DNA from: a virus
Lineage: Duplodnaviria; Caudoviricetes
Virus record (IMG/VR): IMGVR_UViG_3300008251_000010
Location: 1-45,971 of that record
Length of the DNA stretch: 45,971 nucleotides
Direction: 5' to 3' (one strand)
Positions within the stretch are counted from its first letter, which is position 1; each line of letters starts with the position of its first letter. Position numbers and translations under genes: made by a program. Positions 2,129 through 42,325 of the stretch are shown here, piece after piece. The notes beneath the pieces were generated by a model that saw only the letters and a program-made list of their open reading frames with translations, was not told where the DNA came from and did not search any database.

Positions 2129-2296
2129 ATGCAAGAAACTATTTTAGCGCTACTATTAGCGTTCACACCCGCAGATGATGCAGCAAAAAACGAACCTGTT
2201 GCCCAGCCAATGCACGGCGGCGGCATAATTATTACTAAAATAGAAGAAGTTCAGCCAAGGCACGGCGGCGGCATAATCATCACAAAAAAAGATTAA
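2129..2296 (+). CDS. Micro-peptide precursor, 55 aa, with hydrophobic leader and two repeated QP(M/R)HGGGIIITK units (not in ORF track)
   Basis: AAAGGA RBS; MQETILALLLAFTPADDAAKNEPVAQPMHGGGIIITKIEEVQPRHGGGIIITKKD; the 48-nt-period repeat differs mostly at synonymous positions (ATT/ATC, ACT/ACA). Confidence 0.75.
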   Translation: MQETILALLLAFTPADDAAKNEPVAQPMHGGGIIITKIEEVQPRHGGGIIITKKD

Positions 2297-2307
2297 AATC
2301 AACAGCA

Positions 2308-2339
2308 TGTAATGCCGTGTAATGCCGTGTAATATTACA
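2308..2339. repeat. Tandem TGTAATGCCG x2 followed by TGTAATATTACA palindrome
   Basis: Directly visible 10-bp-period repeat between the peptide gene and the membrane protein gene. Confidence 0.7.
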
Positions 2340-2397
2340 ATCATTGCAAAATACTCAATACAGCTGTTATTATCGCCTTTCTTTGCAGGGAGGCGGT

Positions 2398-2961
2398 ATG
2401 TTAGAGCAATTTATACATTATTTTGAAGCAACAATAAAAAACACGCCTACGGCAGTGTTGACCAATATCGGCTTTTTACCGGCCACAGCTCTTGCCATGA
2501 TCCGCTATAACAAAAATAAAGAAACCCTTTCAAACCTACTTACCATATCAGTAGTATCAGCCATCTTTTTAATTTCCGCATTTGAAATGGAGCTGGCAAT
2601 GGAATATATACGCGAACATCACAGCAAAGGCAGTCTACGTAATATTTTAATGGTATTTGCATCACAGAGCATATTAGGTGTGATCGTTTTATATAAATTA
2701 CATACCCGAAAAGCCTACGATATAGGCTCATTATTTTTTCATTTAAGCGCAATACAAATCACTTTTGCGGTCATGCACACTTTATTATGGATAAAGTTAG
2801 TTGTACCAGATTGGAATCAAGCGTATTTAACATCACACGCAATATATTCAGCATTAAGCTTATATTTAACCGCCACAATTCAAATAGCGTGTTTATTTCC
2901 CAAAATCATCAATACACGCTTAAAGCACTTAATTAACCCATTCGCATTTATGAGTAGATAA
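2398..2961 (+). CDS. Multi-pass inner-membrane protein (cassette 1), about 187 aa
   Basis: GGGAGG RBS before ATG 2398 (preferred over the track start at 2344); about 5 hydrophobic segments. Confidence 0.75.
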   Translation: MLEQFIHYFEATIKNTPTAVLTNIGFLPATALAMIRYNKNKETLSNLLTISVVSAIFLISAFEMELAMEYIREHHSKGSLRNILMVFASQSILGVIVLYKLHTRKAYDIGSLFFHLSAIQITFAVMHTLLWIKLVVPDWNQAYLTSHAIYSALSLYLTATIQIACLFPKIINTRLKHLINPFAFMSR

Positions 2962-2962
2962 C

Positions 2963-3406
2963 ATGGATTTTATAACCTCTTTTTTTTCAAACTTAAGCTA
3001 TTTCGAAATAATTTCCATCGCGTTAGTGGCTTTAGTGGCAATTCACTTAGTACAATTATTTTATTGCCCAGTGACCAATCGATTTAATAAAAAAATTAAA
3101 AACAAAGAGCACCTAATTTGTTGGCATCAGTTAAAATCTAGAGAAGAATCAGATCGGTCAATTTCATTAGAACATCTAAAGAAGTCAGACAAACTGCTGT
3201 TAGATTTGGCATACGAGTCAAATATGCACGCAAAAATAGTGATGCCAAAAGAAGATAAAACAGTTAAAAGACCATCACGAACAATTGACGAGGGTGCAAA
3301 CGCTTTAATGCGTAAATTATCAGAAGATGGTCATAAGGTAGTAGATTTAAGCATGGCAAGGGCCATAAAAAAAGGCTATTTATATCAAAAGGAAGATGAA
3401 ATTTAA
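2963..3406 (+). CDS. Membrane-anchored protein with charged C-terminal domain (cassette 1 partner)
   Basis: Starts 1 nt after the upstream stop; one N-terminal hydrophobic helix then a soluble region. Confidence 0.7.
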   Translation: MDFITSFFSNLSYFEIISIALVALVAIHLVQLFYCPVTNRFNKKIKNKEHLICWHQLKSREESDRSISLEHLKKSDKLLLDLAYESNMHAKIVMPKEDKTVKRPSRTIDEGANALMRKLSEDGHKVVDLSMARAIKKGYLYQKEDEI

Positions 3407-3864
3407 GCGGTTTCATCCGTATTAGCCGATAAATGACGCTGTAGTTCTTCGGCTACATCACGCAACATCAAATCAGCAACAGCAGTATTATACGACTCAT
3501 TATTAACAAACTCTTTAGATACATGATTCGCCATTGCCAATTTAGCCAATGCTTTTTGCAAACCCACCTTAACCACTTGCAAATCAGTTTCTTTAATCTG
3601 ATTTACCTCAACACCATACAGCAGCCAATCTAAACTTACGCCACGGCCTTTAGAATTTAAATCAAGTACAGCAGCATTTAACCAGGTTAAAGGGATCTCC
3701 CCTCGCGCTTTCATTTGCTTAGGCGCATCTGGCCCAAAGTCAAAAATTCTAGCAAGGTGCGTATTCTTAGTGACTTTATACAAACTACACAAGCGGCTCA
3801 TAATCTCGTCAAACCATAGTTTGCGAGCCTCTAGTGACATAGTTTTTGTAACTTGCTTAATCAT
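3403..3864 (-). CDS. CI-like HTH repressor without peptidase domain
   Basis: IMSRL..LY....NTHLARIF.......QMKARGEIP...GVSLDWLLYG matches the phage 186/P2-type CI repressor N-terminal pattern. Confidence 0.75.
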   Translation of the reverse strand: MIKQVTKTMSLEARKLWFDEIMSRLCSLYKVTKNTHLARIFDFGPDAPKQMKARGEIPLTWLNAAVLDLNSKGRGVSLDWLLYGVEVNQIKETDLQVVKVGLQKALAKLAMANHVSKEFVNNESYNTAVADLMLRDVAEELQRHLSANTDETA

Positions 3865-3894
3865 AAGTAAAAGTCGAATTGTTAGAATCGTTAA

Positions 3895-3918
3895 AAAATA
3901 ACATATTTGTTATTTTTA
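3895..3918. promoter_or_regulatory. Palindromic operator candidate in divergent promoter region
   Basis: AAAAATAACA-TATT-TGTTATTTTT between the repressor and the second peptide cassette. Confidence 0.5.
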
Positions 3919-4046
3919 TCTACCTAAAAAATAAAAAAGTAATCATATTGATAACCTTATTGTAAATATAGTTGTCGAATGGTAGATTAACCATTCCCTT
4001 TATAGGGTAATTTACTCTTAATTTAAAAACGTAGAAGGAAAGCAAA

Positions 4047-4148
4047 ATGACATTAGGCAAATACAACCAATGTAGCGATAAAGATCAAAAACAAACAAAA
4101 GGTCCAGGTGGTGGTGGTGGTGCAGGTGACGGCACTAAAAAAGACTAA
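4047..4148 (+). CDS. Gly-rich micro-peptide, 33 aa (not in ORF track)
   Basis: AGAAGGA RBS; MTLGKYNQCSDKDQKQTKGPGGGGGAGDGTKKD; same TKKD C-terminus and same position ahead of a membrane gene as the 2129 peptide. Confidence 0.7.
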   Translation: MTLGKYNQCSDKDQKQTKGPGGGGGAGDGTKKD

Positions 4149-4192
4149 TCACACAGATTAGTTAAATGTAAAAAGGATTTGGACGGATACCA

Positions 4193-4903
4193 ATGGAAAC
4201 ACTTTTAACAACACTGCAAAACAACGCATTAATAACCAGCTTACATACTCAATTAGCGTTATTAATTACTGGCATAGTCATCAGCAAAAATAATAAAAAC
4301 TTACGTTGGATATTTGCCTTTTTATTTACCGCACGATTAATCGATACCTACTTATTATTACCACTTCATCAATATATGAATGATGAAGCAGAAATCGCCA
4401 CTTATTGCTTTTGGGCATTGAGTGCTTATTGCTGTTATAAATTTTTATTACTGCGCCCCTACTTCACCTATAAAATAGGTGTATGGCTACAACTATTAAC
4501 CAGCAATACCAAATTAAATACCAGTCAAGCATTACCAAGCCGCTATCCTATCAAATTCACCAAAACAGAATATTTATTGGCACGTATTTACGGCGGCTTT
4601 AGCCTTTGCAGCCTAACACTTGTTTTATACCTATTGATAAAAAATGGCATGGCTTACGACATTCCACCAGGTCAAGCGCAATGGCTAATTAATATTGCCA
4701 ACCTATTAACAGGTAAAGAAGTGACACAAGGTACATTTTTATTAATGTTAGCGCGTTCGCTTAATACATTACTCACCGCAGCTGAATATATCTTACTGGC
4801 AACGCTGATCATCAAAGAATTACCAAATTACATCAACAGTAAAATAAATGACAACACCATAAAAAACAAACACAAGGATACTGGCGCACATGAAACTTTC
4901 TGA
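4193..4903 (+). CDS. Multi-pass inner-membrane protein (cassette 2)
   Basis: 236 aa with about 5 hydrophobic segments; GGA-rich RBS region. Confidence 0.8.
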   Translation: METLLTTLQNNALITSLHTQLALLITGIVISKNNKNLRWIFAFLFTARLIDTYLLLPLHQYMNDEAEIATYCFWALSAYCCYKFLLLRPYFTYKIGVWLQLLTSNTKLNTSQALPSRYPIKFTKTEYLLARIYGGFSLCSLTLVLYLLIKNGMAYDIPPGQAQWLINIANLLTGKEVTQGTFLLMLARSLNTLLTAAEYILLATLIIKELPNYINSKINDNTIKNKHKDTGAHETF

Positions 4904-5279
4904 ATCTCAAGCACTGTTAAAAGATATGGCAATTTGTGCCATACGCGATAGCGAACAAAAAATAAATACCAACCAATTAGCCAAAAGTATGCGCTTAAAA
5001 GGTGATGAAGTAGAAAGTTGGTTAACACCAGGTAATGGCTGTACGCCAACACAAACACAATTTATGGCAATGCAAAAAGCAATATTGCGTGGGCCAAAAT
5101 CACTATTTATAGAAGAACAAATGCAAAACCTTGACGAAATAGACACCTTTGGTGATTTAATAGAGCAAGGTATTGAATCAGATCAAATGAAAGCGGGTTG
5201 GCATATTTCAGCAGTTCGTAGCCTAAAACGTATTGTAGGTGACTGCCGCACTAACCTGACTTTGCTTGATACAAAGTAG
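4890..5279 (+). CDS. Putative HTH DNA-binding protein (cassette 2 partner)
   Basis: Overlaps the upstream stop; NTNQLAKSMRLKGDEVESWLTP...TP resembles an XRE/CII-like HTH. Confidence 0.55.
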   Translation: MKLSESQALLKDMAICAIRDSEQKINTNQLAKSMRLKGDEVESWLTPGNGCTPTQTQFMAMQKAILRGPKSLFIEEQMQNLDEIDTFGDLIEQGIESDQMKAGWHISAVRSLKRIVGDCRTNLTLLDTK

Positions 5280-5565
5280 TACAAGCTCTAACCACATAGC
5301 GATGGGCGCTTTTGCCTATCGTCTTTCGTTTATTATCTACAATGCACTGCCAACTATCTTCATAACCAAACCAGCTACTTGATTGTTTTTCACCACTATA
5401 CATTTCATAGTTATCTGCACAGTATTGCCATGTTGGCCTTGCTTGGCTGGCAACTTTAAGTTTTGGCAATTCATCTAACATACACTGCTCTACACTTTTA
5501 GCATGAGCGCTCAGTGGTATAAATAAAGCGGTAAATACAATAATTAAACCTAATTTACTTTTCAT
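5251..5565 (-). CDS. Secreted four-cysteine protein (resembles VF_A0006 family)
   Basis: Signal peptide ending SAHA; two similar Cys-pair units (CMLDE..YC, CIVDN..ACTTLY). Confidence 0.6.
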   Translation of the reverse strand: MKSKLGLIIVFTALFIPLSAHAKSVEQCMLDELPKLKVASQARPTWQYCADNYEMYSGEKQSSSWFGYEDSWQCIVDNKRKTIGKSAHRYVVRACTTLYQAKSG

Positions 5566-5642: not shown

Positions 5643-5713
5643 TGCATAGCATTAATGCTATGCATAACTAAAATAATACATTATAGTTATGCATAGCATC
5701 AATGCTACACATA
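5643..5713. promoter_or_regulatory. Two parS-like palindromes upstream of parA
   Basis: Perfect 22-bp palindrome TGCATAGCATTAATGCTATGCA (5643-5664) and TATGCATAGCATCAATGCTACACATA (5688-5713). Confidence 0.7.
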
Positions 5714-5728
5714 AAAAAGGCGGGTAAA

Positions 5729-6508
5729 ATGGCAAGGACAATAATGGTAGGTGTAGGTAAAGGCGGAGTAGGAAAAACCACATCAGTTGTAAATTTAGGG
5801 TTTGAACTTTCTAGCTCAGGTAAAAGCGTACTCATACTCGACTTTGACGGGCAAGCAGATACAACCAAGTTTTTAAAACGCACTAATACAGAATACTTTG
5901 TAGGTGACTTATTACTAGATAGGCACTTTGATATAAATAAAGTAATTTACCCCGCAATCATAAACGGGCAAGAACAAGGTAACTTACATATTATTCCTGG
6001 TCGCAAAGATGATGCTATGACAAAACTTGATATGGATTTATTCCCATTACCCAAGCGAGAAGAACGCCTAAACATGCACCTCAGTAAAATTAAAGACCAA
6101 TACGATTTTATATTAATAGATACCAATCCAGGCACATCGGTATTGGGTTTAAATGCGGTATTTGCAGCAGATGAATTTATATTCCCCACCGAGTTTAAAG
6201 AACACTCCCTCGATGGCGTAGATTCATTAATAAAGCATATAGAAGATACAACCTTTATAGATGAATCAGAAATAAAGTTTTTAGTAGTGCCATGCAAAAT
6301 TGCCAAAGCTGCAAAAAAATCATTGGCCTATGGCACAGAATACCTAGCAGGAAGATTTCCCAACAACACAGCAAAAACAACAATTTGGTATAGAGAAGTA
6401 TTTGGTGATGCAGAATTAGATCACGAACCCGTATCAGTATTTTCAAAGGGCCACCAAGCAGCCATGTTTTATAAAAATTTAGCAAAAGAGGTAATAGATA
6501 ATGTTTAA
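5729..6508 (+). CDS. parA: ParA/Soj family partition ATPase
   Basis: Deviant Walker A KGGVGKTT, LILDFDGQ, YDFILIDT; likely start MARTIM at 5729. Confidence 0.92.
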   Translation: MARTIMVGVGKGGVGKTTSVVNLGFELSSSGKSVLILDFDGQADTTKFLKRTNTEYFVGDLLLDRHFDINKVIYPAIINGQEQGNLHIIPGRKDDAMTKLDMDLFPLPKREERLNMHLSKIKDQYDFILIDTNPGTSVLGLNAVFAADEFIFPTEFKEHSLDGVDSLIKHIEDTTFIDESEIKFLVVPCKIAKAAKKSLAYGTEYLAGRFPNNTAKTTIWYREVFGDAELDHEPVSVFSKGHQAAMFYKNLAKEVIDNV

Positions 6509-6902
6509 CCAAGAGCGCTTTGACGAGCTAAACACAAAAGCAAAGCTATCACCTCAAGAGCGTGGAGAGCTAAAAAGCCTGACGCGCTTAAAATTAAAAG
6601 CAGATGAAGCGGCTACAGGAAAAGATAAAAAAAGAACAAATGAATTTTCAATTAAGCCTACAACAAAATCGGCTACAACTCCTGTTAGATTTATAGCCAG
6701 TGAACAGGCGTTAATGACAAAAATATTAGACAACCTAAAAGATAACAATGAAGATTTAGTGCTACAAAATTTAGGCGGCAGTTTAAAAGATTTAAATAAA
6801 ACTAAATTAATTAGAGCTGCAATATTAGCCTTAGATGATTTAAGTTCTGAACAAATAGTTGATTATATTAAACAAGTTAAAATTAATATGGTAAGAGGAT
6901 AG
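6501..6902 (+). CDS. Small centromere-binding partner (type Ib-like, probable ribbon-helix-helix)
   Basis: Overlaps the parA stop; basic N-terminus then strand-helix-helix pattern (TTPVRF...LNKTKLIRAAI). Confidence 0.65.
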   Translation: MFNQERFDELNTKAKLSPQERGELKSLTRLKLKADEAATGKDKKRTNEFSIKPTTKSATTPVRFIASEQALMTKILDNLKDNNEDLVLQNLGGSLKDLNKTKLIRAAILALDDLSSEQIVDYIKQVKINMVRG

Positions 6903-6929
6903 TATGTGTAGCACCAATGCTATGCATAC
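6902..6929. promoter_or_regulatory. parS-like palindrome downstream of par operon
   Basis: GTATGTGTAGCA-CCAA-TGCTATGCATAC, same consensus as the upstream sites. Confidence 0.65.
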
Positions 6930-7009
6930 CATAAAGCAGTAAAACGAGTTGACTATGGGGTACGCCAATACCCCAAAGTCGATAACATAAAAGTAATGGA
7001 GATCACCCT

Positions 7010-7156
7010 ATGTCAGACACTAATTGTAACGCAATTGATAAGCAGAGTCTAAGCCAGTTGCACAGTATGCCAATTGATAAAATATTAACCTGGTTAGCAA
7101 CAAAGCAACCTTGGATGCAGCAACATATAATTAAAGAGCTCACATCAATTCATTAG
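7010..7156 (+). CDS. Small hypothetical protein, 48 aa (not in ORF track)
   Basis: GGAGA RBS; MSDTNCNAIDKQSLSQLHSMPIDKILTWLATKQPWMQQHIIKELTSIH; preceded by a hairpin at about 6951-6980. Confidence 0.5.
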   Translation: MSDTNCNAIDKQSLSQLHSMPIDKILTWLATKQPWMQQHIIKELTSIH

Positions 7157-7180
7157 CCTTTTAATTCATTAGCACTTAAC

Positions 7181-7212
7181 AAGTATGCATATCACTAGTG
7201 CTATGCATACTT
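7181..7212. promoter_or_regulatory. parS-like palindrome
   Basis: AAGTATGCATATCACTAGTGCTATGCATACTT, 32-bp palindrome with one mismatched pair. Confidence 0.65.
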
Positions 7213-7245
7213 TTAAAATTAGCCTAACAGCGTTTAGAGGTCATA

Positions 7246-7524
7246 ATGCCCAGCACAGTAAACAAAGCAACATCCACTCAAACATCAACAAGTCAGCAAT
7301 GGCCCGCAGACAATTTGGCATACATTACCGCTTGTCAGTTAGCAGGAGGCGATAAACCGAACCAATGGCAACTCATTGCAGGTTACAGGATATTAATTCG
7401 CTCTACGATGCACAGGCGCGTTTTAAACTTACCCGTTAGCCAACATGTAAAAGAATACAAAGCAGCCAAAGCCATATTATTTCCACATACAGTTAAATCC
7501 CAGTTTAAAAAGAGCAATATATGA
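7246..7524 (+). CDS. Hypothetical protein
   Basis: 92 aa, AGAGG RBS, ATGA-coupled to the next gene. Confidence 0.55.
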   Translation: MPSTVNKATSTQTSTSQQWPADNLAYITACQLAGGDKPNQWQLIAGYRILIRSTMHRRVLNLPVSQHVKEYKAAKAILFPHTVKSQFKKSNI

Positions 7525-7769
7525 CAGTAGATAAAATTGATGTTCAAACCGAACTGGCTAAAAAGCGCCAAAATCAAAACGAACGTAAAGCAAAAAGCAG
7601 GGCCAAGTTAGAAAAGTTTGATATGAAAGAAGTGCGCTTTGAAGCAAGTAAAAGCGAAAGGGATCAACTTAATGATTTATGCACTGCCACCACTGGCGAA
7701 CCATTTAGCAAACAAGAAATGATATTAAAACTAATACGCGAGGCCCATGCAAAAATACAAATACCATAG
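7521..7769 (+). CDS. Small basic DNA-binding regulator (probable ribbon-helix-helix)
   Basis: Basic helix (ERKAKSRAK) then strand-helix-helix (EVRFEAS..ERDQLNDLC...SKQEMILKLI). Confidence 0.55.
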   Translation: MTVDKIDVQTELAKKRQNQNERKAKSRAKLEKFDMKEVRFEASKSERDQLNDLCTATTGEPFSKQEMILKLIREAHAKIQIP

Positions 7770-7824
7770 AATACGCTTAAAACAAACATTGTGACGGGTC
7801 ACAGTAGTTGAATTAGATAAAAGC

Positions 7825-7871
7825 AAAAAGGGGTCGGAGTCAATTAAATTAATGTACTCCGACCCCTTTTT
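7825..7871. repeat. REP-like palindrome, copy 1 of 3
   Basis: AAAAAGGGGTCGGAGT-caattaaattaatgt-ACTCCGACCCCTTTTT. Confidence 0.85.
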
Positions 7872-7879
7872 AATTGCAG

Positions 7880-8500
7880 AGGGAAAAAGCTTTTGTACTC
7901 AATGTGCGTAGCACATGTAGCGGAGCGAAACTTCTTTCCGTGATGTATTTAAGTATCGGTAAACGCGAATAACGAATCGAAGATAGTCAAGAGAGATCAT
8001 TGTCGGACTCAATTCGACCACAGTAGTTAACAGGCGCACTATCTCAAGTAGAAAATAAATATTTTTATATGCCCCCTGATAAACAAAATCTTTTCCTAAC
8101 GTATTACATAAAACCAAAAGATATTACTGTAATGAAGTCCCACTGGGGCATCTAGTTCTACCCCATGAAAACTTAGATTAATTCGCGTTAGCGATTTCTT
8201 AATCTAAGGATTGATTAAAGGGGTAGGCATTATTGGGGTATGCAGGTTTGCCCTTTAGGGCAGGGCCGGCAGGGGCAGCGCCCCTAAGAGGGGTATGCAC
8301 TCAACGCGAAAAATATATTTAAATTATTACTCGATGCTCTAGCGAGGTTACGAGCCTTATATTTAAAGGTATTTAAAAGACTCTATATAAAGCCATCACG
8401 AACTTTATCTTCAACGGCAATAACCACCACTAATTTAAGCTAAACCATCACCAGTGTAGTTACAGGGATTACAACTTATCACCAATTAAAATCTAAAAAT
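7880..8500. other. Putative replication origin region
   Basis: No convincing ORF; next to the putative rep gene; nested inverted repeats at 8158-8226, GC-rich hairpins at 8250-8285, AT-rich tracts. Confidence 0.45.
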
Positions 8501-8682
8501 ATAAAAGGGGTTATAGTTGATTAATGAACAAAAAAACAACATTTATATACTATCAACCACCTTAAAAAATAGAGATATACAAACACAAAACACACTAAAG
8601 TATAAAAAACGTTCAATAAAAAACACTCAGGCACGGCAAAACACAGCACTTGGCGCTGTTATAAATAAAATATGGTGTAAAG

Positions 8683-9450
8683 CTAAGTGGTTGCTTGGTT
8701 CTGACTCATAATTTCAGCAAAGGATCGGGTTTTACCTCTTTGGTTTTTAGAGGCGTTACCAGGTGATACGGGTTGAGGTTTACTTCTTTTGATCTTGATC
8801 TTACTCGGTAGGGAAAAAACATAACGTACAGCGCGTTTAGCGGTATCTTTAGCATAATCAATCGCTTTAGATTTTAGCATCGTTGCCATTAAACGCTTAA
8901 CAGTCATAAAAGCCCAATTAGTTTTAGTGCAAATGTCAGAAATGGTTTGTCTGTAGCTTTTATTTTTGTTCTTTGAATTTATAAAATTAGATCTAATTTT
9001 AGTGGCTATTACCGCATTAAGCATCAGAGCCTTGTGTTCATGGCGCGAATCATGTCGGCTTTTAGATGTGAACCCCTTAAAATCTACAGCGTAAAGATTA
9101 AAGTAATTACCTTTTAATTTTTTCTTCATCGCTTGATGCGCTACCAAATGACTAAAAGCAACGTCATGCGCTGGGTTAATGGTGATAGTACGCTTATAGC
9201 CTTTCTCCGCTTTATCTTGAATGATCATATCTTTTTTTATTAAATCATCAATGGCTTTTTTAACTGCATTAACAGAGTAGTTTAAATGTTTTGCTATGGC
9301 GGAAACTTGAGACTTAAATTGACCAAAAGTCGCATTAAAATGGGCTATATGAGAAAAGACTAAAGTCTGTGTTTCAGACTGGGTGACTTGTAATACCTCA
9401 AGAGAGAAGTACACAATTTTATTTTTAGCTGGCTTACTATTAATTGTCAT
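8683..9450 (-). CDS. Putative replication initiator with two winged-HTH-like units
   Basis: SQVSAIAKHLNYSVNAVKKAIDDLIKKDMI and TISDICTKTNWAFMTVKRLMATM; very basic; next to the par locus and origin-like DNA. Confidence 0.55.
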   Translation of the reverse strand: MTINSKPAKNKIVYFSLEVLQVTQSETQTLVFSHIAHFNATFGQFKSQVSAIAKHLNYSVNAVKKAIDDLIKKDMIIQDKAEKGYKRTITINPAHDVAFSHLVAHQAMKKKLKGNYFNLYAVDFKGFTSKSRHDSRHEHKALMLNAVIATKIRSNFINSKNKNKSYRQTISDICTKTNWAFMTVKRLMATMLKSKAIDYAKDTAKRAVRYVFSLPSKIKIKRSKPQPVSPGNASKNQRGKTRSFAEIMSQNQATT

Positions 9451-9818: not shown

Positions 9819-12800
9819 TCACTGAGCGCCATACAAAGCATATTCATTTTTCAAGTGATCTAAGTGCGGATTAAGCATCAAACCATTGTCTGACTTTTTG
9901 CTGTACTGCTTACGGCGGCGTATACTTTTGATTAAAGTAGCCCTTGTTAATTTATATTCAGGATTTGCCACATTATACTTATCTATCATGGCTAATACCT
10001 CTTGCTGGCGTTCGGTATCGTCTAATCGTTTAGCCATTGCATAACGATTTAATAATAAACGTCTACGGCCTAATATACGTTGCTCAGCACCTTTAATACT
10101 TGAGTTGTTAGAATAGGCTTCACCTACTGCCGCAGGGCTAAAACCACTGCCTTGCAATACCACTTCAAGCAAACTTAAATCTTCGCCTTTTATGATTTCA
10201 TCACCGCGTAAATTAGTGACTCCCTCATTGTTATAGCGGATTGCTTTACGTACATCTTTGGCGAACTTAGGTAACGCATATTCAATACCACGCCAAGTGT
10301 GATCTTCTTTAATTAACTGACTTGCCATACCGCCACTTAATGCCAAACCATATACCGGCCCTAAAAACTGCTCAGCATAATAAGCCACTTTGTCACGGCC
10401 CTCTAATTCGCGGTTAGATTCACGTAACCATAAATTATTTAAACTCACACGACTTTGAATATTTGCACCGGTTTCATTTAATAAACCGTTCATTGCAATA
10501 CGGGCCATATCTTCGCCAAACATACTGCTTAGATTTTGACGTAAAGCAACATCTGCATCCCACGGCTCGTCCTCGTCATCGCCTAATAAATTAGCGAGGC
10601 CGGTCATAACAGAATAAAGTGGTAAACCGGCAGTACCAGCAAATACACCCGTCATGCCCATAATGCCCCAAAATTGCTTTTTCGCCTGGGCTGCTTCGTC
10701 TTTGTCTTTACTAAACTGGTTTTTAAAATCGCGCCATAAACGTACCGTCATGTTTAAGCTGTACTGTCTAAATAATAACAATACTTTAGCAAAATCATTT
10801 TGCATGTATCTGGCACGATTAGCGCTAGAATAATCAAAGTGTGATTCAATGGTTAAGTCATGTGCCGTTTTTACTGCCTCTTTAAAACCTTTGCCATCTT
10901 CGCGGGCCAGCCTAAAACTTGCCATTGCCGTTACTTCACGGTTAAGCCTTTCAGCATGGTGAAATAAATAACTGGCGCGAGACATCCACTTTTGCATTTT
11001 AGGGTTATAGCTTTCGCCGCCCTCTGCAACACCGGCTAAATCGTGTGCCATTGTTTTATCTATTAAACCGCTTTGCATAAAATACTTCATGGCGCGGCGT
11101 TCTTCGGTATTGAGTGGCGATTTATCTAAATGACCTTTGCCTTTTAATAATTCACCGCCCGCTTTAAGTAACATTTTACCGGCCTTTTTAAAGCCGTATC
11201 TGCTGGCTAAAACAGGATATGCAATTAAAGGTGTTTGCGATAAATTGACCATCGCAGCCGCAGGACTCACACCTAAGTAATACATAAAACCAAAGCTGGT
11301 TAAATTTGTTGCCAGTGGGCTACCTGTCGGGTTCATTATCCAACCGTGACGCGATTGCATTTCGTTGGTTAAGTCGCGGGCCTTATTGTTTTTAGGCACA
11401 GTAGGCTGGTTATGTGCTTCATCACGCATAATGTTAAGCGCCTTATCAAGCCTATGAGCAAATGCCAATTTAGAAATTTCGTATGCACCATGAAATGTAT
11501 TATGGGCAAATGACTTAATCGCATCTTGGCTATAACCGGCTGTTCCTTTACGGCGAATAAAATGCTTACGCATCGACATGTCAGGCAACGACTGTAAATA
11601 TAATTGATATACATCATCACTTACCTGGTCATTTAACTTAGGTAATAAATCACGAATGAATTGCGGGCTAATAGAATCTAATGCACTGTTAAAGTCTGCT
11701 TTTTTACCGCCTGTTATTTCTACCTCATTACCAAACTCTTTGCGTTTTTCTTCAAGCCATTGGCCTTGCTCATACTCAGTTTCAAATAAACTGAATTCAA
11801 TGACTTCACCTTTTACTTTTTGCCCGTCAACTTCGCTATCTGGCTTTTTAACCACACCGCTATATTCACCATGACGACTTAATGGAATATAAAAACCGCG
11901 TTTATGATTTTGTTCATACTGAAACTGCCACATATCTAAGGTACGTTTAGCATATTGTTTATTGGCTGTTTCTTCTTTAATACGTTGCACAAAAGCATTG
12001 TTTTTAATTTCAGCTTGCTTTTGATAGGCATCAACAATGTCAGTCATTTGCTTTTGCCATTTGTCAGGCAAGGCTTTAAAGCGGGCATGTAGTGCATTGT
12101 AAGCTTGTTCACGTTCGCCGTTTTCTTCTTTAATTAAAGCAGCTTGGGCAAACTTCATAGTTTTGCTGAATTCGTCTTGATCTTCTAAGCTTTTAGTTTC
12201 AAGTGCCTTGGTCATTAACTTAGATTTTAAATCATCATAACGTTGCTCAGTCATAGCAGGAATATACTTTTCCATACGCGGATCAACATTATCTAAGGTG
12301 GCATCATGTAATAAGTCAGCAAATAATTTACCGCCGTCTTTATCGCTATCGTGTAGTGCTTGCCATGCTTTTACTTGGTCAAAGCTGGTTGTTTGCATGG
12401 TAGAACGCCACGCATCAATTTTTTGTACGGTATCTTCAAAGGCAGTCATAGCCCCTTTGTAAGCCACACTTAAATCTTTTGCGACACCTTGCAAGTAAGT
12501 GCGGGGCATCATGCCCAACACTTTACGGCGGTGTTTGGCATAGAGCGAATGCGCTCTATCACCTAGCGACTTTTTTAATAAGTCTTTGTCCTCCTGGTTC
12601 ATATTGCTTAAATCAGTGACACCATTTAAGGCATTGCTCATTAAGTCATTGGCTTTAGTGATTTGCGCACTAATATGATCGGGTACTGATTTAGCGTAAA
12701 AAGTTTTACCGCCGTCATTACCTGGGCCATTTGGATCGGTTGGATTAGTGGCTTTTTTCATACTGCGCTCAATAGCATTGAGTACGCCTTGTATTTCACT

Positions 12801-15800
12801 TTGGCTAATTTGTTCAGCCGGTAAAATACCCACTTTACGTAAGCCTTTAATTAATACGTTTTTAATACGCACCCAAAGGGCGCTCAACTTGCCTAAATCA
12901 GCTTGTGCCAGTTTACCTATTACCTCATTGGCTTGGGCTGCTTGGTCAAATTCAGGATAGTTTTGTTCAACGTCTTGCCATACATCACTTAGTTTACCCT
13001 CTCGCCCTGCAATGACTCGGCTAATAAGCTGCTCATAATCTGCTTTATTAAGCACTTTATTTAAACCATGATGGGCAATCACTTCTTCACGTAAAATCTT
13101 TTTAAGGGCCGTACCACTGCCAATATTGTCACGTACTACATACACTTGCCCATTTTGATAACTGGCTTGTGCTAAGCCCTCGCTAGGTGGATTAGGTAAG
13201 TCACTTTGACTTTGTACGATTTCAACTTTGACCTGTGCCGCACCCTTTAAGCCAGTGATAAAGTTATTAACAATGCGCTTAGCTAAAACATTAGGAATAC
13301 TTTTAGCCGGTTGTTCTGTGGTTTTGGCGTAAAGCGCTATGCCCTTATCAGTCTCTTTGGTTTTAAGGGTTGCAAACAAGTGATCGTAAGCTTGCTTTAA
13401 AGCCGGAACTTCATCAATCACAGGATAAGGATAAGATTTTTCATCCTCCAAGCCCCATGCTTGTTCGCTGGTAATATTAGCTAAATAATCATTAGTCCAA
13501 TTGTTATCTTTCGCCTTGCCAATAATATAACTTTCAAAAGTACGGGCTGCCATTTCAATCGTTTTGGCCCAATATGCTTTAGATCTACGGGCATCTAATT
13601 TAGTTGACCTTGCTGGTAAACCTGAGTTTTTGATCACTCGTACAATTTGATTAAATGCTTTGGCAACTTCTGGGCGTATTGCTTCATTAGGTAGGGCATA
13701 CGGATGTTCAGTAATAAAACCTCTGTCTGATTTTTGTTTACCAAAGTAATCATCAAATGCATGAAACCATTCATGGGCCAAAGAACCCGCACCTGATTTT
13801 TTAGTTAAATTAATCACTACCTTACCAGGTTCGTAATGTGCCGCTGCTGGCGTTTTTCCACCGCTGCCACGCGCACCAAATGCTAAACCTAACGCGCCAT
13901 CTAAACTCAATGCTTTAGGCGGTATATTTAATAGCTCGGCTAAATCCATTAAACCATCATAAGCTTGGTTTAAATCTTTTTGACGTTTACCTTGCTCTAC
14001 CCAATTACCAAATTCTACGCCTCTAAAACCAAAGGTATCAGCAAATACAGCAGGCGTTACATTGTCGGCATAACGCTCTGGGCCAATACGTGCCTGATTA
14101 ACTGGCTTGCGCATATTAGGTGTGGCTTTCATTTGCTGTAGTGTGGTTTCAACATCATCACGGTTACTTTCTAAATATGCTCTGGCCTCTTTGGTTGTGG
14201 CAAAGTCTTTAATTTTTAAAACACCACTTGCGCCTTTCCAACCTAAATAAACCGTTTTATCAGCACGGCTAACATACACACTAATTTTACTGTGTTTACC
14301 TGTTTTACTGGTTGCATTGTTATCACTATTAATAACGGTTTCAAGTGCCTTTTGCGTTACCTCTAACGACTCGTTACCCTCTAAACCTAAACGTCTGCCA
14401 TTGTGCATGACTTCATAAATTGGTTTGTTTGGGTCGCGTTCTTCGCCTTTATATAAAGAATAGCCACGACCCTCAATACGATATTTAGCAGCCACTTTTA
14501 ATTTATTGGGAGCTGTTTTAGCTAATACCGCAACCGCATCTTTAATGCCTCTAAAGGTATGACCTAAATCGTCAATATCATTAATAATATCGCTGACACT
14601 GGCAACGTCTTTAATAAGCAATTTAGTTAAGTTTCTAATGGTTTGAACTTGCTTAGTCCAACGAGTTAACTTATGTGCCACTCTTGGCTTGCTCGGTATG
14701 GCATCACGTAATAATGCAATAACAGCCATTTTGTCACCACTTACGCCTGACTCTGCCAATTTTTCATAATCAGGCTGTGGAAAGGTTTTACTTAATGGCT
14801 CACTGCTTAAATCTATTTCTTTATTAAGTGACTCTTTAAATGCACCCCAGACTTCTTTTTTAGCACCGCCAATTTTTTCACCAAAATCATTAATGGCTTC
14901 TTGCGGTTCTACTTGGGTTTCATCCTGAATATCATTTTGTGAGTTATCCACATTTTCTGTGGTTAACTCGGTGCTTTGCTCTGTATTATTTTCGGTACTA
15001 TCGTCGGTGCTTTCCTCTGCATTTGCTGATTCATCTTGCTTAGACTCACTATGTATAGCGGGGGTGCTATGCATATCGGTATTTTGTGCTTCAACCGATA
15101 AATCAGCCGTAGTGTCATCGGTATTAACGTCACCTTTTTCACTTTGTATATCATCAGTGCTATGCATAGCATCCTGTGCCAATTCACCAGCAATGTTTTC
15201 ACCAGTGTAAGCATGGTCACTGCTGACGGTTGTTGTGTTTGCCACTTGATCTGCTTTTGGTGTCCAGTTGCCCTCACTGGCAAACCAGTTAGTTAACGCA
15301 TGATCTAAACGCTTTTTAGCGTGTGCTTTTTCGCGGGTATCTTTAATGCGATTAAGCTCACGTTCTTTTGCCATATCAACACGCGCTATGGCCTCGGCCT
15401 TATTGCTATCACCTTGTTTGTTAGCATTAGCAAAAGCCTGTGCCATTGCCTCACTTGGTTGGTAGCTTTGTGGAATGGTTTTATTAATATCATTTAAAGC
15501 GGCATCAAGTTTTAACTGCTGGCGTTTATTGGCAGCTATGGCTAACTGTTTTTTAAATGTTTTACGTTTTGGCTTTAAAGTTTTAGCGAGGTTTTGCAAA
15601 CGGGTAGAATTAGCACGGCGCTCGGCTATGATCAAACCGCTTTTAGTGGGATTAGTTTGGCGCTGTGTCTGTTGCTCTAATACCGTCTCACGGCGAGTAA
15701 CTTGTGATGCTTGTTGCGCTAAATCAGCTTGGTGTTGGGATTTTGCTTGGTCAAAATCACCATCGCGCACCACTTGATTTACTTGCTCGGTTTTTTGCCA

Positions 15801-18056
15801 ATAATCAGCTTCATCGGCAATATCTTGCTGCTGTTTTTTTTGTTTGTTTTCTACAATTTCATCAACCACATTTTTTGCATATTGCTTACGGCCTTGAATT
15901 TTTGTTGCTGCATTCACAATCACATCTTTGGCTTGTTCTTGCTTGGCTTGCTCAAAACGTCTTTGCTCTGCGGCTAAATATATTTCACTGGCTGCTTGTG
16001 GTTTAGGTGCATTTTTAGCTTTTTGATTCGCTAATGATTGCGCTTCAAGTGCTGCGGTTGCCTCGCGGTCTTGCTGCATTTGTTTTGCAAGGTTTGTTTC
16101 TTTACGTTGTGATTTAGTGGGCTGATTATCCACTACACTTTGTAACCTGCTGGCTGTGGCATCACCATTTGATGCAATAGAAAACACTTGTTGGTTTAGG
16201 GTTTCTAAATCTGCGGGGCTTTGCTCACTGCTAAAGAAAGTCTCTTTTGCTTGCTGTAATCTAACAGGGTCGATTGCCTCGGCATCTTGCACCATTTGCA
16301 TATCGAGGCTTTGTGTTTCAAGGGGGGCTTTGTTGTTATCAACGAGTTTATCTCTTAATACACTACGTTGTTCGCTTAATGAATTAGCTGTATTTGTTGG
16401 GGCTTGGGTATTATTAACATCAGGTACGTCCATGCCTAAACTTGGTGCGGGTTGTTGGCTTGTTGGGCTAGTTGTTTGGTTAGGTAATGGCACGGCTAAT
16501 ACTTCGCCAGTTTCAGGGTCGATATTGTCCATGTTCATAGCCGATGTTTGTGGGCTATTAAAACTGCTTTGCTGTGCTGGCGCTTGATGGCTATTAGTAT
16601 TTAATACCCCCAACAAGCCTTGTTTAAATGCGTGTTCGTTTTTATCTTTTTTAAAGTTATCTTCTAGAATTCGGGTATGTTCGTAGTTTAAAACCCTTGC
16701 TGCGGCTACCGGCTGTTTTAAGTTTAATGGAATGGTACGCGCTATTTTTTGTTTTTGTACCTTGGCACGGTCTTTATCATGCCATTGATTTACTTGTTGT
16801 ACTGCTTGGCTTAATTGTTGGTCTACATCTGCGGCACTGGTATCGGGGCGCACATTATCAACTGAGGGTTTAATGGCTGATAAATCAACTTGCTGTGCTG
16901 TTTGCTCTGCGGTTTTCTGTGCTGCATTTTGATTAGCTTGTGCCTGTTGCTGTGCATTTATTTGGCTTTGGGCATTAGCTTGGGTTTGCGCCACAATATC
17001 AGCGGTTTGCTGTTGTGCGGCATCGAGGGAGGCATGACCTGTTTTAGCCACTGGAGCGGCTTTTACTGGTTGGCCTGGTTCATTCATACCGGCTCTTTTA
17101 TTAACACCATGACCAATTGCAGCCATTGTGCCACCCATTGCACCACCAATTAATGCCTCATTTAAACCACTGGCTATTACGCCTCGGGTTGGGTCAATGG
17201 TGCTGTCTACCGTTTGTGCATGTTGCTTAACGGTATATGCCTCGGTTGCACCTTGCGCAAATTCGCTTGATCCCTCTACTGCAAAACCTTTGGCTACAGA
17301 AGATTTAAAGCTTTTACCTAATGCTTTGCCTAAGCCTTTAGCAATAATCGGATCGCCTATGGCGCTGGCTGCAAAGTTAGCAATTAATAGCTTAGGGTCG
17401 CTCATTACCTCAGATTCAATTTGCTCTTTTAAGCTATGTTTGGCTTTTTCAAATATTTCAGCTGGTGATAGGTTTGGCGCTTGTTGGCTTTGTTCTGTAA
17501 AGTGCTGCTTAAACTTGTCGCTTTGCGCTAAGGTTTCATCACTCATGTTTTCAATAAGCTGCTGTGCTTGTAACCCTGCTTGACCTGTTGCCGCCCCCCC
17601 ACCTAACGCACCCATACTGGCACTGGTGGTAAGGGCTTTGGCTTTTGCACCGAGTTTAAATGCGGTACTTGCACCTTTGGCAATTGCACCACCTGGTAAC
17701 GCCGTTGGTAAAAATTGACCTGTTACATTGGCAAGGTTTAATACCCATGCACCTAAATCAGTTACGCCCTCGCCTAAACCAATATTGCCGTTGGCATCTT
17801 CAACAATGAATTCCTTTTGCATTGATGTACGACCATCGTCACTCATTTGATTTATTTGGTCTTGGCTAATGTCATTGAGTGAATCGGCTATGCCATCAGC
17901 ACCTAAAAAATTAAATAAACCGGCTGAGGCACTAAATGCCCCCATTTGTAAGGCATCTATTGAATCGCCAAGCATGCCTTGTTCGCTTTGTGGTTGTACT
18001 GGTGCGCTGGCAAATAAATTGGCCGCTTGTTGTTGTGCTAGTAGGTTAAAACTCAT
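9819..18056 (-). CDS. Giant polyvalent internal virion/ejection protein (LPD5/LPD1-like, metallopeptidase-like and PLxRFG-like regions)
   Basis: 2745 aa; INDFGEKIGGAKK, FRGVEFGNWV, LAHEWFHAFD, EMAARTFESY, EEVIAHHGL and YIPLSRHG motifs; last gene of the virion operon. Confidence 0.8.
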   Translation of the reverse strand: MSFNLLAQQQAANLFASAPVQPQSEQGMLGDSIDALQMGAFSASAGLFNFLGADGIADSLNDISQDQINQMSDDGRTSMQKEFIVEDANGNIGLGEGVTDLGAWVLNLANVTGQFLPTALPGGAIAKGASTAFKLGAKAKALTTSASMGALGGGAATGQAGLQAQQLIENMSDETLAQSDKFKQHFTEQSQQAPNLSPAEIFEKAKHSLKEQIESEVMSDPKLLIANFAASAIGDPIIAKGLGKALGKSFKSSVAKGFAVEGSSEFAQGATEAYTVKQHAQTVDSTIDPTRGVIASGLNEALIGGAMGGTMAAIGHGVNKRAGMNEPGQPVKAAPVAKTGHASLDAAQQQTADIVAQTQANAQSQINAQQQAQANQNAAQKTAEQTAQQVDLSAIKPSVDNVRPDTSAADVDQQLSQAVQQVNQWHDKDRAKVQKQKIARTIPLNLKQPVAAARVLNYEHTRILEDNFKKDKNEHAFKQGLLGVLNTNSHQAPAQQSSFNSPQTSAMNMDNIDPETGEVLAVPLPNQTTSPTSQQPAPSLGMDVPDVNNTQAPTNTANSLSEQRSVLRDKLVDNNKAPLETQSLDMQMVQDAEAIDPVRLQQAKETFFSSEQSPADLETLNQQVFSIASNGDATASRLQSVVDNQPTKSQRKETNLAKQMQQDREATAALEAQSLANQKAKNAPKPQAASEIYLAAEQRRFEQAKQEQAKDVIVNAATKIQGRKQYAKNVVDEIVENKQKKQQQDIADEADYWQKTEQVNQVVRDGDFDQAKSQHQADLAQQASQVTRRETVLEQQTQRQTNPTKSGLIIAERRANSTRLQNLAKTLKPKRKTFKKQLAIAANKRQQLKLDAALNDINKTIPQSYQPSEAMAQAFANANKQGDSNKAEAIARVDMAKERELNRIKDTREKAHAKKRLDHALTNWFASEGNWTPKADQVANTTTVSSDHAYTGENIAGELAQDAMHSTDDIQSEKGDVNTDDTTADLSVEAQNTDMHSTPAIHSESKQDESANAEESTDDSTENNTEQSTELTTENVDNSQNDIQDETQVEPQEAINDFGEKIGGAKKEVWGAFKESLNKEIDLSSEPLSKTFPQPDYEKLAESGVSGDKMAVIALLRDAIPSKPRVAHKLTRWTKQVQTIRNLTKLLIKDVASVSDIINDIDDLGHTFRGIKDAVAVLAKTAPNKLKVAAKYRIEGRGYSLYKGEERDPNKPIYEVMHNGRRLGLEGNESLEVTQKALETVINSDNNATSKTGKHSKISVYVSRADKTVYLGWKGASGVLKIKDFATTKEARAYLESNRDDVETTLQQMKATPNMRKPVNQARIGPERYADNVTPAVFADTFGFRGVEFGNWVEQGKRQKDLNQAYDGLMDLAELLNIPPKALSLDGALGLAFGARGSGGKTPAAAHYEPGKVVINLTKKSGAGSLAHEWFHAFDDYFGKQKSDRGFITEHPYALPNEAIRPEVAKAFNQIVRVIKNSGLPARSTKLDARRSKAYWAKTIEMAARTFESYIIGKAKDNNWTNDYLANITSEQAWGLEDEKSYPYPVIDEVPALKQAYDHLFATLKTKETDKGIALYAKTTEQPAKSIPNVLAKRIVNNFITGLKGAAQVKVEIVQSQSDLPNPPSEGLAQASYQNGQVYVVRDNIGSGTALKKILREEVIAHHGLNKVLNKADYEQLISRVIAGREGKLSDVWQDVEQNYPEFDQAAQANEVIGKLAQADLGKLSALWVRIKNVLIKGLRKVGILPAEQISQSEIQGVLNAIERSMKKATNPTDPNGPGNDGGKTFYAKSVPDHISAQITKANDLMSNALNGVTDLSNMNQEDKDLLKKSLGDRAHSLYAKHRRKVLGMMPRTYLQGVAKDLSVAYKGAMTAFEDTVQKIDAWRSTMQTTSFDQVKAWQALHDSDKDGGKLFADLLHDATLDNVDPRMEKYIPAMTEQRYDDLKSKLMTKALETKSLEDQDEFSKTMKFAQAALIKEENGEREQAYNALHARFKALPDKWQKQMTDIVDAYQKQAEIKNNAFVQRIKEETANKQYAKRTLDMWQFQYEQNHKRGFYIPLSRHGEYSGVVKKPDSEVDGQKVKGEVIEFSLFETEYEQGQWLEEKRKEFGNEVEITGGKKADFNSALDSISPQFIRDLLPKLNDQVSDDVYQLYLQSLPDMSMRKHFIRRKGTAGYSQDAIKSFAHNTFHGAYEISKLAFAHRLDKALNIMRDEAHNQPTVPKNNKARDLTNEMQSRHGWIMNPTGSPLATNLTSFGFMYYLGVSPAAAMVNLSQTPLIAYPVLASRYGFKKAGKMLLKAGGELLKGKGHLDKSPLNTEERRAMKYFMQSGLIDKTMAHDLAGVAEGGESYNPKMQKWMSRASYLFHHAERLNREVTAMASFRLAREDGKGFKEAVKTAHDLTIESHFDYSSANRARYMQNDFAKVLLLFRQYSLNMTVRLWRDFKNQFSKDKDEAAQAKKQFWGIMGMTGVFAGTAGLPLYSVMTGLANLLGDDEDEPWDADVALRQNLSSMFGEDMARIAMNGLLNETGANIQSRVSLNNLWLRESNRELEGRDKVAYYAEQFLGPVYGLALSGGMASQLIKEDHTWRGIEYALPKFAKDVRKAIRYNNEGVTNLRGDEIIKGEDLSLLEVVLQGSGFSPAAVGEAYSNNSSIKGAEQRILGRRRLLLNRYAMAKRLDDTERQQEVLAMIDKYNVANPEYKLTRATLIKSIRRRKQYSKKSDNGLMLNPHLDHLKNEYALYGAQ

Positions 18057-41476: not shown

Positions 41477-42325
41477 TTACTCAACTACAATCCAATCTTC
41501 GGCTAGTGTATCTGAACCGCTTGGAGTCCATGTTGCTACATCGTTTTGTGCAGTTTTCAAAGCCCAGTAATCACGATAAGGCACAACATCATTTTCAAAC
41601 ACATCTTTAATCGCCTCCATTTTTGCAGGATATTGCCCAGCACTAACAATATACGCAAACATATCAGCACCATTCCAACCAGTTCGTGCAATACGCTTAC
41701 CTTGCTTTGCTTGTTCAACGGCCCAACCAAAACAACCAGGCGTTAATGCCGGTTGATAACATGTATTATTAACTAACGCTTTTTTAAGGTTATAACCCTC
41801 CAGTAACCATAATTGATTTTTAGCTTCAAGTTCTGCGTTCTCAATTGCAATCTTTGCCCCTACTTCCTCATCAAAGTTCTCAATTGAAGCACATGCACTA
41901 TATTCATTAGCTAAAGTGAACTTACTACCATCAGCGAACAATAATATTGCAACAGCAACCGTTGTTGTGGTGTTTGGCACAACATACGTATGATAAGTAA
42001 CATTGTTCATTAATGTATTAATTTGTTCTGGTGTCACTCTTGGTGCAGTTAAACCTTTATCCAAAATCATTTGCTCAATAGGATTTGCACTATCTATCAC
42101 ATTCCTTTCAGCAAACGTTTCAGCATCAACATGATAAATATCATCTTCATTTAAGTAACAAATATAATCACCTGGCACTGGTGTTTGATGTGCTTTGAAA
42201 TTTACCTTCTGATCACCTAACTGATAAAACCAATTAGATTCACCAGATACTTTTTCAAGTAAACCCTCTGGTAAAATGACACATGCATTACGAACAGTTG
42301 GCTTACTTTGATAATCTTTAAACAT
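41477..42325 (-). CDS. Three-domain fusion: PGDY-motif domain, N4 gp49/Sf6 gp66-like domain and DUF2829 (Tad2-like) domain
   Basis: TAPRVTPEQI...SACASIENFDEEVGAKIA...LWLLEGY; FGWAVEQAKQGKRIARTGWNG...WTPSGSDTLAEDW. Confidence 0.8.
   Translation of the reverse strand: MFKDYQSKPTVRNACVILPEGLLEKVSGESNWFYQLGDQKVNFKAHQTPVPGDYICYLNEDDIYHVDAETFAERNVIDSANPIEQMILDKGLTAPRVTPEQINTLMNNVTYHTYVVPNTTTTVAVAILLFADGSKFTLANEYSACASIENFDEEVGAKIAIENAELEAKNQLWLLEGYNLKKALVNNTCYQPALTPGCFGWAVEQAKQGKRIARTGWNGADMFAYIVSAGQYPAKMEAIKDVFENDVVPYRDYWALKTAQNDVATWTPSGSDTLAEDWIVVE

Follow-up and report, generated by a model that had tools for sequence, protein, structure and literature searches.

A conserved peptide and membrane protein unit in a temperate phage: likely an undescribed peptide-signaling system of Gram-negative bacteria

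The window analyzed here, from a marine phage, is an entire linear virus record (IMG/VR IMGVR_UViG_3300008251_000010; Duplodnaviria, Caudoviricetes) of 45,971 nucleotides (nt), with 39% GC. Between positions 2129 and 5279 it carries two gene cassettes, each with a micro-peptide, a multi-transmembrane (TM) protein and a third protein, and between them lies a CI-like gene. The original prediction, made from the sequence alone, saw in these cassettes a candidate phage peptide-signaling system. All seven open reading frames (ORFs) are present at the predicted positions, with Shine-Dalgarno (SD)-like sequences 5' of both peptide genes. We found that cassette 1 is a conserved four-gene unit comprising a peptide, a five-TM protein, an anchored partner, and a convergent CI-like gene.

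Peptide 1 (2129-2296, + strand) is a 55-amino-acid (aa) precursor that we assign to family A. A short hydrophobic leader (hydropathy 3.26) is followed by two PxHGGGIIITK units of 16 residues, which correspond to a 48-nt DNA repeat with 81% identity. The precursor aligns with 18 upstream peptides from related loci. The original prediction had named in advance an observation that would speak against it, the lack of Gly-rich micro-ORFs upstream of homologues of the membrane proteins; such micro-ORFs are kept and co-vary with the membrane proteins. Specifically, a micro-ORF with a Gly cluster ends ≤130 nt upstream of the membrane gene at 22 of 27 family A loci, versus 4 of 216 other genes taken as controls from the window and the fetched loci. 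The pairing is far above chance. All 22 of these peptides are 42-65 aa long with a hydrophobic N-terminus (best 8-residue hydropathy 1.86-2.65), and they carry one to four copies of a GSGGIVII-like core followed by lysines, the core being repeated in most. Cys is absent from peptide 1 and from the family A cores. A core motif built from these same peptides matched 45 times in 278,836 six-frame residues, and 44 of the matches fall inside the peptides. A DNA pattern of the peptide 1 core matched 12 viral stretches, 0/12 with a family A protein.

MP1 (membrane protein 1; 2398-2961, + strand; 187 aa) is the predicted receptor. It has five predicted TM helices in an N-out/C-in arrangement, and its AlphaFold2 model consists of five membrane-length helices (predicted local distance difference test, pLDDT, 88). 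Charge bias across 32 family A sequences suggests the same orientation, with acidic outer segments; the predicted topology thus places acidic loops outside, opposite the Lys-rich peptide tails. In family A, Y150 is the sole invariant residue, and A29, S151, and P168 are nearly invariant; no residue of catalytic type, including His and Cys, is invariant. The spacer between peptide 1 and MP1 holds a 10-nt direct repeat of 2.5 copies (2308-2335) that overlaps a minus-strand terminator-like site.

The partner (2963-3406, + strand; 147 aa) has an N-terminal membrane anchor and a cytoplasmic helical domain, and is predicted to be a transducer or anti-repressor. It scores 18.5 bits (residues 14-83) against a profile of partners from related loci. 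The fourth gene, convergent with the partner and divergent from cassette 2, encodes a CI-like helix-turn-helix (HTH) protein (3403-3864, − strand; 153 aa). Originally described as a peptidase-less CI-like repressor placed between the cassettes, it scores 73.9 bits against a profile of like-placed genes in related loci, a profile that does not contain the window protein, and no S24 or other peptidase domain was found in it. However, its Pfam match is weak (PF07022, E 0.0019, below cut-off, residues 21-86; the N-terminal HTH alone matches). The gene belongs to cassette 1. No other cassette protein had a Pfam or PHROGs match at E 0.01. Downstream of the membrane gene, 21 of 27 family A loci have a partner with an N-terminal anchor and, beyond it, a CI-like gene in convergent orientation (8 of the 21 CI-like genes were used to build the profile). 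The two complete strong loci without a CI-like gene, L020 and L027, have partners that carry a C-terminal AraC-type HTH (HTH_18/AraC, E 6.5e-13). This replacement of the CI-like gene by an AraC-fused partner is the best hint that the output of the unit is transcription. A regulatory output is supported by the fixed CI-like neighbor and the two AraC fusions.

The family A unit occurs in phages of several kinds: with resolvase and parA neighbors in the arrangement of the window (resolvase, cassette A, CI-like gene, parA; L046, L047, and L048), in P2-like prophages with an integrase (L058/L059), and near a terminase (L050). P. lipolytica, P. gelatinilytica, and others also carry it on the chromosome, at a constant position flanked by genes that we take to be those of exonuclease I and a bicarbonate transporter. 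Carriers of cassette A include P. lipolytica CGMCC 1.8499 and P. gelatinilytica NH153. The presence of the unit in Pseudoalteromonas chromosomes indicates that the system is not phage specific, and the named carriers of cassette relatives belong to this genus. A profile search of 1.84 billion proteins returned 13 matches, of which one, a repetitive 394-aa protein, was excluded from the alignment. With the resulting family A profile, matches were found at 27 places spread over 21 of 140 genomes from Pseudoalteromonas, the genus to which P. gelatinilytica belongs. Beyond the known matches, none was detected in 401 family-level and 401 order-level genomes (nine order-level matches at E 0.002-0.009 were taken as noise).

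We found no Pfam, PHROG, or NCBIfam family for MP1. Pfam over the 32 family A members gave no AgrB, peptidase, kinase, or receiver match and no covering family; two single-member matches were taken as noise. Searches of the PDB with the MP1 and MP2 models returned generic helical bundles only (best Z 12.4 and 9.8, a designed protein). BFVD searches with both models yielded nothing at E ≤0.001; the leads for MP1 are several unnamed viral proteins of 139-183 aa with a template-modeling score of 0.5-0.6. In the ESM Atlas, the nearest clusters consist of hypothetical Pseudomonadota proteins without a Pfam family (MP1, 0.93-0.95; MP2, 0.82-0.84). Searches of GenBank phages by tblastn (MP1, MP2, P0011, and the L050 protein) and scans of IMG/VR (A2, A1, and the L050 protein) gave no match, and no RNA data set was listed among the sequencing runs.

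Alleles of the peptide core and of the membrane protein are exchanged jointly. Across 16 loci with a two-copy peptide, core identity rises with identity over the first 130 positions of the membrane protein (Spearman 0.62; 0.63, p 0.0002, in a partial Mantel test controlling for the partner) and does not follow partner identity (-0.01). Pairs of loci with partners 94-99% identical may differ in core, with membrane N-parts merely 42-65% identical; conversely, L009 and L014 share the same core, with N-parts 79% and partners 69% identical. Specificity-group swapping in agr and comQXP follows the same pattern. Some genomes retain a remnant C-terminus of another family A allele behind the membrane gene (L003 5602-5709; G001:C13:716300-716395; also G006), an allele-replacement scar.

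The cassettes had been described as twins. They represent two different families rather than copies of one module, and MP1 and MP2 lack sequence similarity. Two short words had been proposed as shared signatures, and both were rejected. Although TKKD ends both window peptides, related peptides end in other Lys-rich words, and the closest peptide 2 orthologue ends in TKND; NKN is present in both window membrane proteins but in only 2 of 32 MP1 family members and 4 of 6 MP2 family members. Neither BLAST nor a profile comparison (A3 versus A1, E 0.35) gave evidence of direct homology between MP1 and MP2. Both models are helical bundles with about five long helices.

A divergent intergenic region (3865-4046) separates the CI-like gene from cassette 2 and likely serves to control both; the promoter scan found no sigma-70 match in it. 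Peptide 2 (4047-4148, + strand; 33 aa; hydropathy -0.28) has a Gly-rich core, no hydrophobic leader, and a single Cys outside the core. MP2 (4193-4903, + strand; 236 aa), a helical membrane protein of family C, has no Pfam family, and its model is a helical bundle less certain than that of MP1 (pLDDT 70). A 129-aa soluble protein (4890-5279, + strand) overlaps MP2. Its suggested HTH-like nature was not confirmed: its score was 6.8 bits with an XRE profile, for which shuffled sequences reached 8.9, and 9.9 bits with a smaller profile. The sole independent MP2 orthologue with DNA, L032 (L031 and L033 are identical copies), encodes an 80% identical MP2 and retains the CI-like gene, the intergenic region (158/178 aligned bases identical), a 33-aa peptide, and the downstream gene. 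Peptide 2 and the L032 peptide have 19 identical, 4 synonymous, and 11 non-synonymous codons, and the Gly core is altered.

Profile A1 found nothing in the 140 Pseudoalteromonas genomes. We examined 10-20 kb around 10 distinct family A loci and detected a second peptide-membrane pair divergent from the CI-like gene in 3/10 (none in 7/10): G078 and G042, where the second pair is of family B, and G104, with a CI-like gene, a Cro-like gene, a peptide, and a family C protein. The G104 protein as query matched 19 places in 18/140 genomes. The family C profile built from these places matches the MP2 alignment (probability 94.4, E 9e-8; real scores 24-33 bits, block-shuffle maxima 16-18). In a wider sample, matches occur in 21/301 genomes, and 30 of 61 places were fetched. 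A co-directional XRE-like gene lies upstream of family C at 36/48 loci, 9 of which were used to build the XRE profile. Window cassette 2 differs from other family C loci in having no gene between the CI-like gene and the peptide, a leaderless peptide, and an unclassified downstream gene. Pfam over 17 family C members gave no AgrB, peptidase, kinase, or receiver match and no covering family. At five family C loci (L142, L143, L145, L146, and L161) the upstream ORF encodes a 70-116-aa Gln/Ser/Ala-rich protein, several with a short Gly-containing tail, and no micro-peptide.

A third family, B, has 181 places in 50/140 genomes and up to 17 per genome. Among the 30 best loci fetched of these 181 places, a peptide is present at 27. 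The order is peptide, membrane protein, and partner, typically with a double-glycine-like leader, a GG..EPP or QP core, and in many loci an anchored partner. Invariant residues of the membrane protein include Cys and His (S52-C53-F54, H107, and C112). Pfam over 24 members gave no AgrB, peptidase, kinase, or receiver match and no covering family. IMG/VR contains eleven family B loci (peptide in 7 of 8 readable), and 301 order-level genomes gave one strong and three weak matches. The cultured phages C5a, ACA1, and ACA2 carry family B; in the Pseudoalteromonas phages C5a (gp05-gp07) and ACA1 (gp5-gp7) the genes, annotated as hypothetical, have the peptide-membrane protein-partner order, but unlike the window, no cassette A or CI-like gene is present in the stretch read. 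These phage genes were not described as forming a system: the terms gp5, gp6, signal, and quorum are absent from the main text of PMC10612066, and its supplement may comment on gp5-gp7. Tandem chromosomal arrays of 3-6 family B membrane genes, behind one peptide gene, none, or an insertion sequence (L105 3908-7625, L106 3002-5894, L107 3300-5425, and L109 3271-5673), resemble orphan receptors or orphan immunity genes. Families A and B are probably distant homologues (hhalign E 0.0012 over 132 columns; A5 profile top scores 20.2 versus reversed 4.7). Comparison of family C with A gave E 0.0065, and with B, E 0.33.

The stretch between a resolvase gene (1232-1948, 5' flank) and parA (5702-6508, 3' flank) is the regulatory/maintenance region of a temperate phage. 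A Pfam/PHROGs scan of the window proteins also identified capsid, head-tail adaptor, terminase, integrase, and a replication-initiator-like HTH protein. The ParA and Rep-like module (5702-9450) and a tyrosine integrase (42676-43995) occur together, so the phage may persist as a plasmid or as an integrated prophage. The spacer from the resolvase start to peptide 1 contains repeated CTCTA(G/A)AG words (1960-2050), likely a resolvase binding site, and palindromic TGCATAGCAT/ATGCTATGCA repeats at 5643-5714 (before parA) and 6917-6926 (past the next gene) are candidate parS or operator sites. The promoter scan returned fewer sites than shuffled sequences (7 versus 16.9). Convergent on cassette 2 is a gene for a 104-aa protein (5251-5565, − strand) with a signal-peptide-like N-terminus and several Cys, without a family match. 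Elsewhere, the genome encodes a 2745-aa DarB-like polyvalent protein (9819-18056; domains LPD5, LPD1, and LPD39) and a protein in which a gp49/Sf6 gp66 domain is fused to a Tad2-like (Thoeris anti-defense) domain (41477-42325).

Cassette 1 has a fixed and conserved gene order, a peptide built of a leader and repeated cores, jointly swapped alleles, and, in relatives, AraC fusions. Its best reading, which we consider probable by a modest balance, is that a secreted peptide, a cognate five-TM receptor, an anchored transducer, and a CI-like repressor form one pathway. After export, the precursor would be cleaved to yield one to four short Gly-Gly-hydrophobic peptides, and these mature peptides would bind the cognate five-helix protein in the inner membrane. 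The anchored partner would then relay the signal and alter the activity of the CI-like transcription factor, presumably by contacting it. The CI-like protein could in turn control the divergent cassette 2 promoter, creating a two-step or two-input circuit. Given that several unrelated temperate phages have the unit in their regulatory/replication region and that it also occupies a fixed chromosomal site of Pseudoalteromonas, the phage most likely counts or overhears peptide signals of kin phages or hosts. Judged from position only, the system may affect the choice between lysis and lysogeny; control of lifestyle, exclusion, or immunity, as originally proposed, is likewise an inference.

Several observations weigh against this signaling pathway. 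Peptide 2 lacks an export leader, and under a strict test a Gly-rich micro-ORF is found at only 11/18 Pseudoalteromonas and 8/29 wider family C loci. The adjacent peptide is absent from 5/27 family A loci, which are the five weakest matches: near three of them (L023, L024, and L030) neither a peptide nor a partner nor a CI-like gene is present; in L029 a 47-aa peptide lies farther upstream, separated by a 116-aa gene, and the membrane gene has an internal stop; and L028 resembles L029, with no peptide found. (L029 910-2579 is a rearranged family A unit, with a peptide, a partner-like gene, the stop-bearing membrane gene, and a CI-like gene, adjoining an integrase.) The link between families A and B is weak (probability 19%; reverse profile test 11.3 versus 9.4 bits). 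The peptide leader correlates with the membrane protein to nearly the same degree as the core (partial 0.62), and allelic differences extend across TM1-TM4 and are not limited to outer loops. Co-variation is no proof of binding, because block recombination of linked neighbors gives the same pattern, and the genomes are related. Finally, the P2-like prophage L058 has a separate immunity-type repressor; together with the chromosomal copies in many strains, this means that a lifestyle role is not implied.

Other explanations must be weighed against the same evidence. The peptide could be a microcin- or bacteriocin-like toxin and the membrane protein its cognate immunity protein, with the orphan arrays representing collected immunity genes. 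Joint allele swapping would be expected of such a pair, and class II microcin/bacteriocin pairs do combine a Gly-rich, double-glycine-leader peptide with a membrane immunity protein. Consistent with this are the double-glycine-like leaders, the family B arrays, in which as many as 6 membrane genes stand in tandem and most have no peptide of their own (with as many as 17 copies in one genome), weak matches of 2/6 related B/C peptides to the EntF inducer and CCPGW bacteriocin models (below cut-off), and a GenBank note that ACA1 gp5 is weakly like TIGR01847. However, the predicted mature cores are ~8-25 residues, repeated, and often acidic, unlike the longer pore-forming class II microcins, and the constant link to a transcription factor and the AraC-fused partner fit sensing better. 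We regard this toxin-immunity explanation as rather unlikely. It is unlikely, too, that maturation of the neighboring peptide is the task of the membrane protein, as an AgrB-like enzyme or an exporter, with the receptor encoded elsewhere. The ~190-aa size and the co-variation recall agrB-agrD, family B has the invariant Cys and His residues given above, peptide 2 is leaderless, and there is no peptide transporter among the 45 window proteins scanned. Against such an enzyme stand family A, which lacks invariant His and Cys and whose peptides bear their own hydrophobic leader, the lack of AgrB or peptidase Pfam matches in families A, B, and C, and the arrays of membrane genes without a substrate peptide.

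Alternatively, the peptides could act within the producing cell, tuning the membrane protein or serving as cis leader ORFs that gate its translation, with no signal passing between cells. The lack of an export leader on peptide 2, the 0-130 nt between the end of the micro-ORFs and the membrane gene, and the several family C loci without a recognizable peptide would accord with this. Such an arrangement is quite unlikely: peptides of families A and B combine repeated cores with leaders of the export type, and their amino acid cores change quickly within conserved flanks, for which a cis leader would have no need. Least probable, in our view, is a role of the cassettes as morons for superinfection exclusion or phage defense, with membrane proteins that prevent entry or kill the infected cell and a peptide that acts as inhibitor. 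Small proteins of the inner membrane commonly act in exclusion, and the cassettes do sit in variable accessory regions of temperate phages, but a fixed four-gene order with a transcription factor, the AraC fusions, and the stable presence of the unit on the chromosomes of many strains argue against such a role.

Of the known systems, arbitrium (AimP-AimR-AimX) of Bacillus phages is similar in having a phage-borne small peptide gene with an export leader, an adjoining regulator, and variants like specificity groups. In the part of PMC11945551 consulted, AimP is described as re-imported by Opp to bind the soluble DNA-binding AimR. Here, in contrast, a five-TM protein is the candidate receptor, accompanied by an anchored partner and, as a distinct protein, a CI-like factor; the hosts are Gram-negative, and the system is also chromosomal. 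The soluble tetratricopeptide repeat (TPR) receptor of arbitrium and RRNPP systems was not found; the neighbors of the peptides are membrane proteins. As predicted, neither a TPR protein (Pfam/PHROGs) nor a histidine kinase (Pfam) was detected among the 45 window proteins scanned. Arbitrium and RRNPP peptides are made as exported precursors that give a short mature peptide; here, peptide 1 has a hydrophobic leader and peptide 2 has none. The C-terminal S24 autoprotease domain of SOS-cleavable phage CI repressors was not found in the CI-like protein.

Gram-positive peptide quorum-sensing systems (ComC/ComD/ComE, BlpC/H/R, EntF, agrBDCA, and ComQXPA) likewise place a peptide beside a membrane protein, and in them peptide and membrane receptor are swapped as a variable block in conserved flanks. 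Double-glycine-like leaders are a further likeness, here in family B. Unlike these systems, the cassette has no histidine kinase, response regulator, AgrB, prenyltransferase, or C39 transporter; its membrane protein has no cytoplasmic enzyme domain, and output seemingly passes via a single-pass partner. A ComCDE/Blp/Ent kinase or receiver was not identified in the window or in families A, B, and C, and the proteins are too short to contain one. The window peptides did not match NCBIfam leader models, and there is no C39-type exporter in the window (host exporters were not searched). With respect to agr, AgrB had no Pfam match in the 32, 24, and 17 members of families A, B, and C, and the fold searches returned only the generic bundles. 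AgrD-type peptides have a ring-forming Cys in the core, which peptide 1 and the family A cores lack and which in peptide 2 falls outside the Gly core. Class II microcin/bacteriocin systems are comparable in their Gly-rich peptide, double-glycine-like leader, adjoining cognate small membrane protein, and orphan arrays, but differ from the present system, which has very short repeated cores, built-in regulators, and no dedicated exporter nearby. Overall, this is not arbitrium: by analogy it may work like arbitrium or the Gram-positive pheromone systems, but it has no TPR receptor, kinase, or AgrB. We found no published description of such a system in the literature searched (mostly open papers, without supplements).

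The module is thus real, conserved, and apparently undescribed, and would constitute a new category only if the signaling interpretation holds. It is likely an undescribed peptide-signaling system of Gram-negative bacteria that is also used by phages. More tentatively, it is possible that these loci represent Gram-negative communication by ribosomal peptides through an unclassified five-TM receptor superfamily with many specificity groups, shared by Pseudoalteromonas chromosomes and unrelated temperate phages. In this phage it would be stacked in two tiers around a peptidase-less repressor to set lysis or lysogeny from phage and host peptides, a functional counterpart of arbitrium made from wholly different parts. 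Peptide signaling is textbook knowledge for Gram-positive bacteria and their phages, and Gram-negative quorum sensing is described mainly via small molecules such as acyl-homoserine lactones, according to the portion of PMC11945551 consulted. If true, the signaling reading would add a new architecture, a kinase-free combination of peptide, five-TM receptor, anchored transducer, and repressor with exchangeable alleles, as many as 17 receptor-like paralogues in one genome, and phage copies. Whether Gram-negative phages talk by peptides would become directly testable, as named strains have cassette A and the cultured phages C5a, ACA1, and ACA2 have cassette B.

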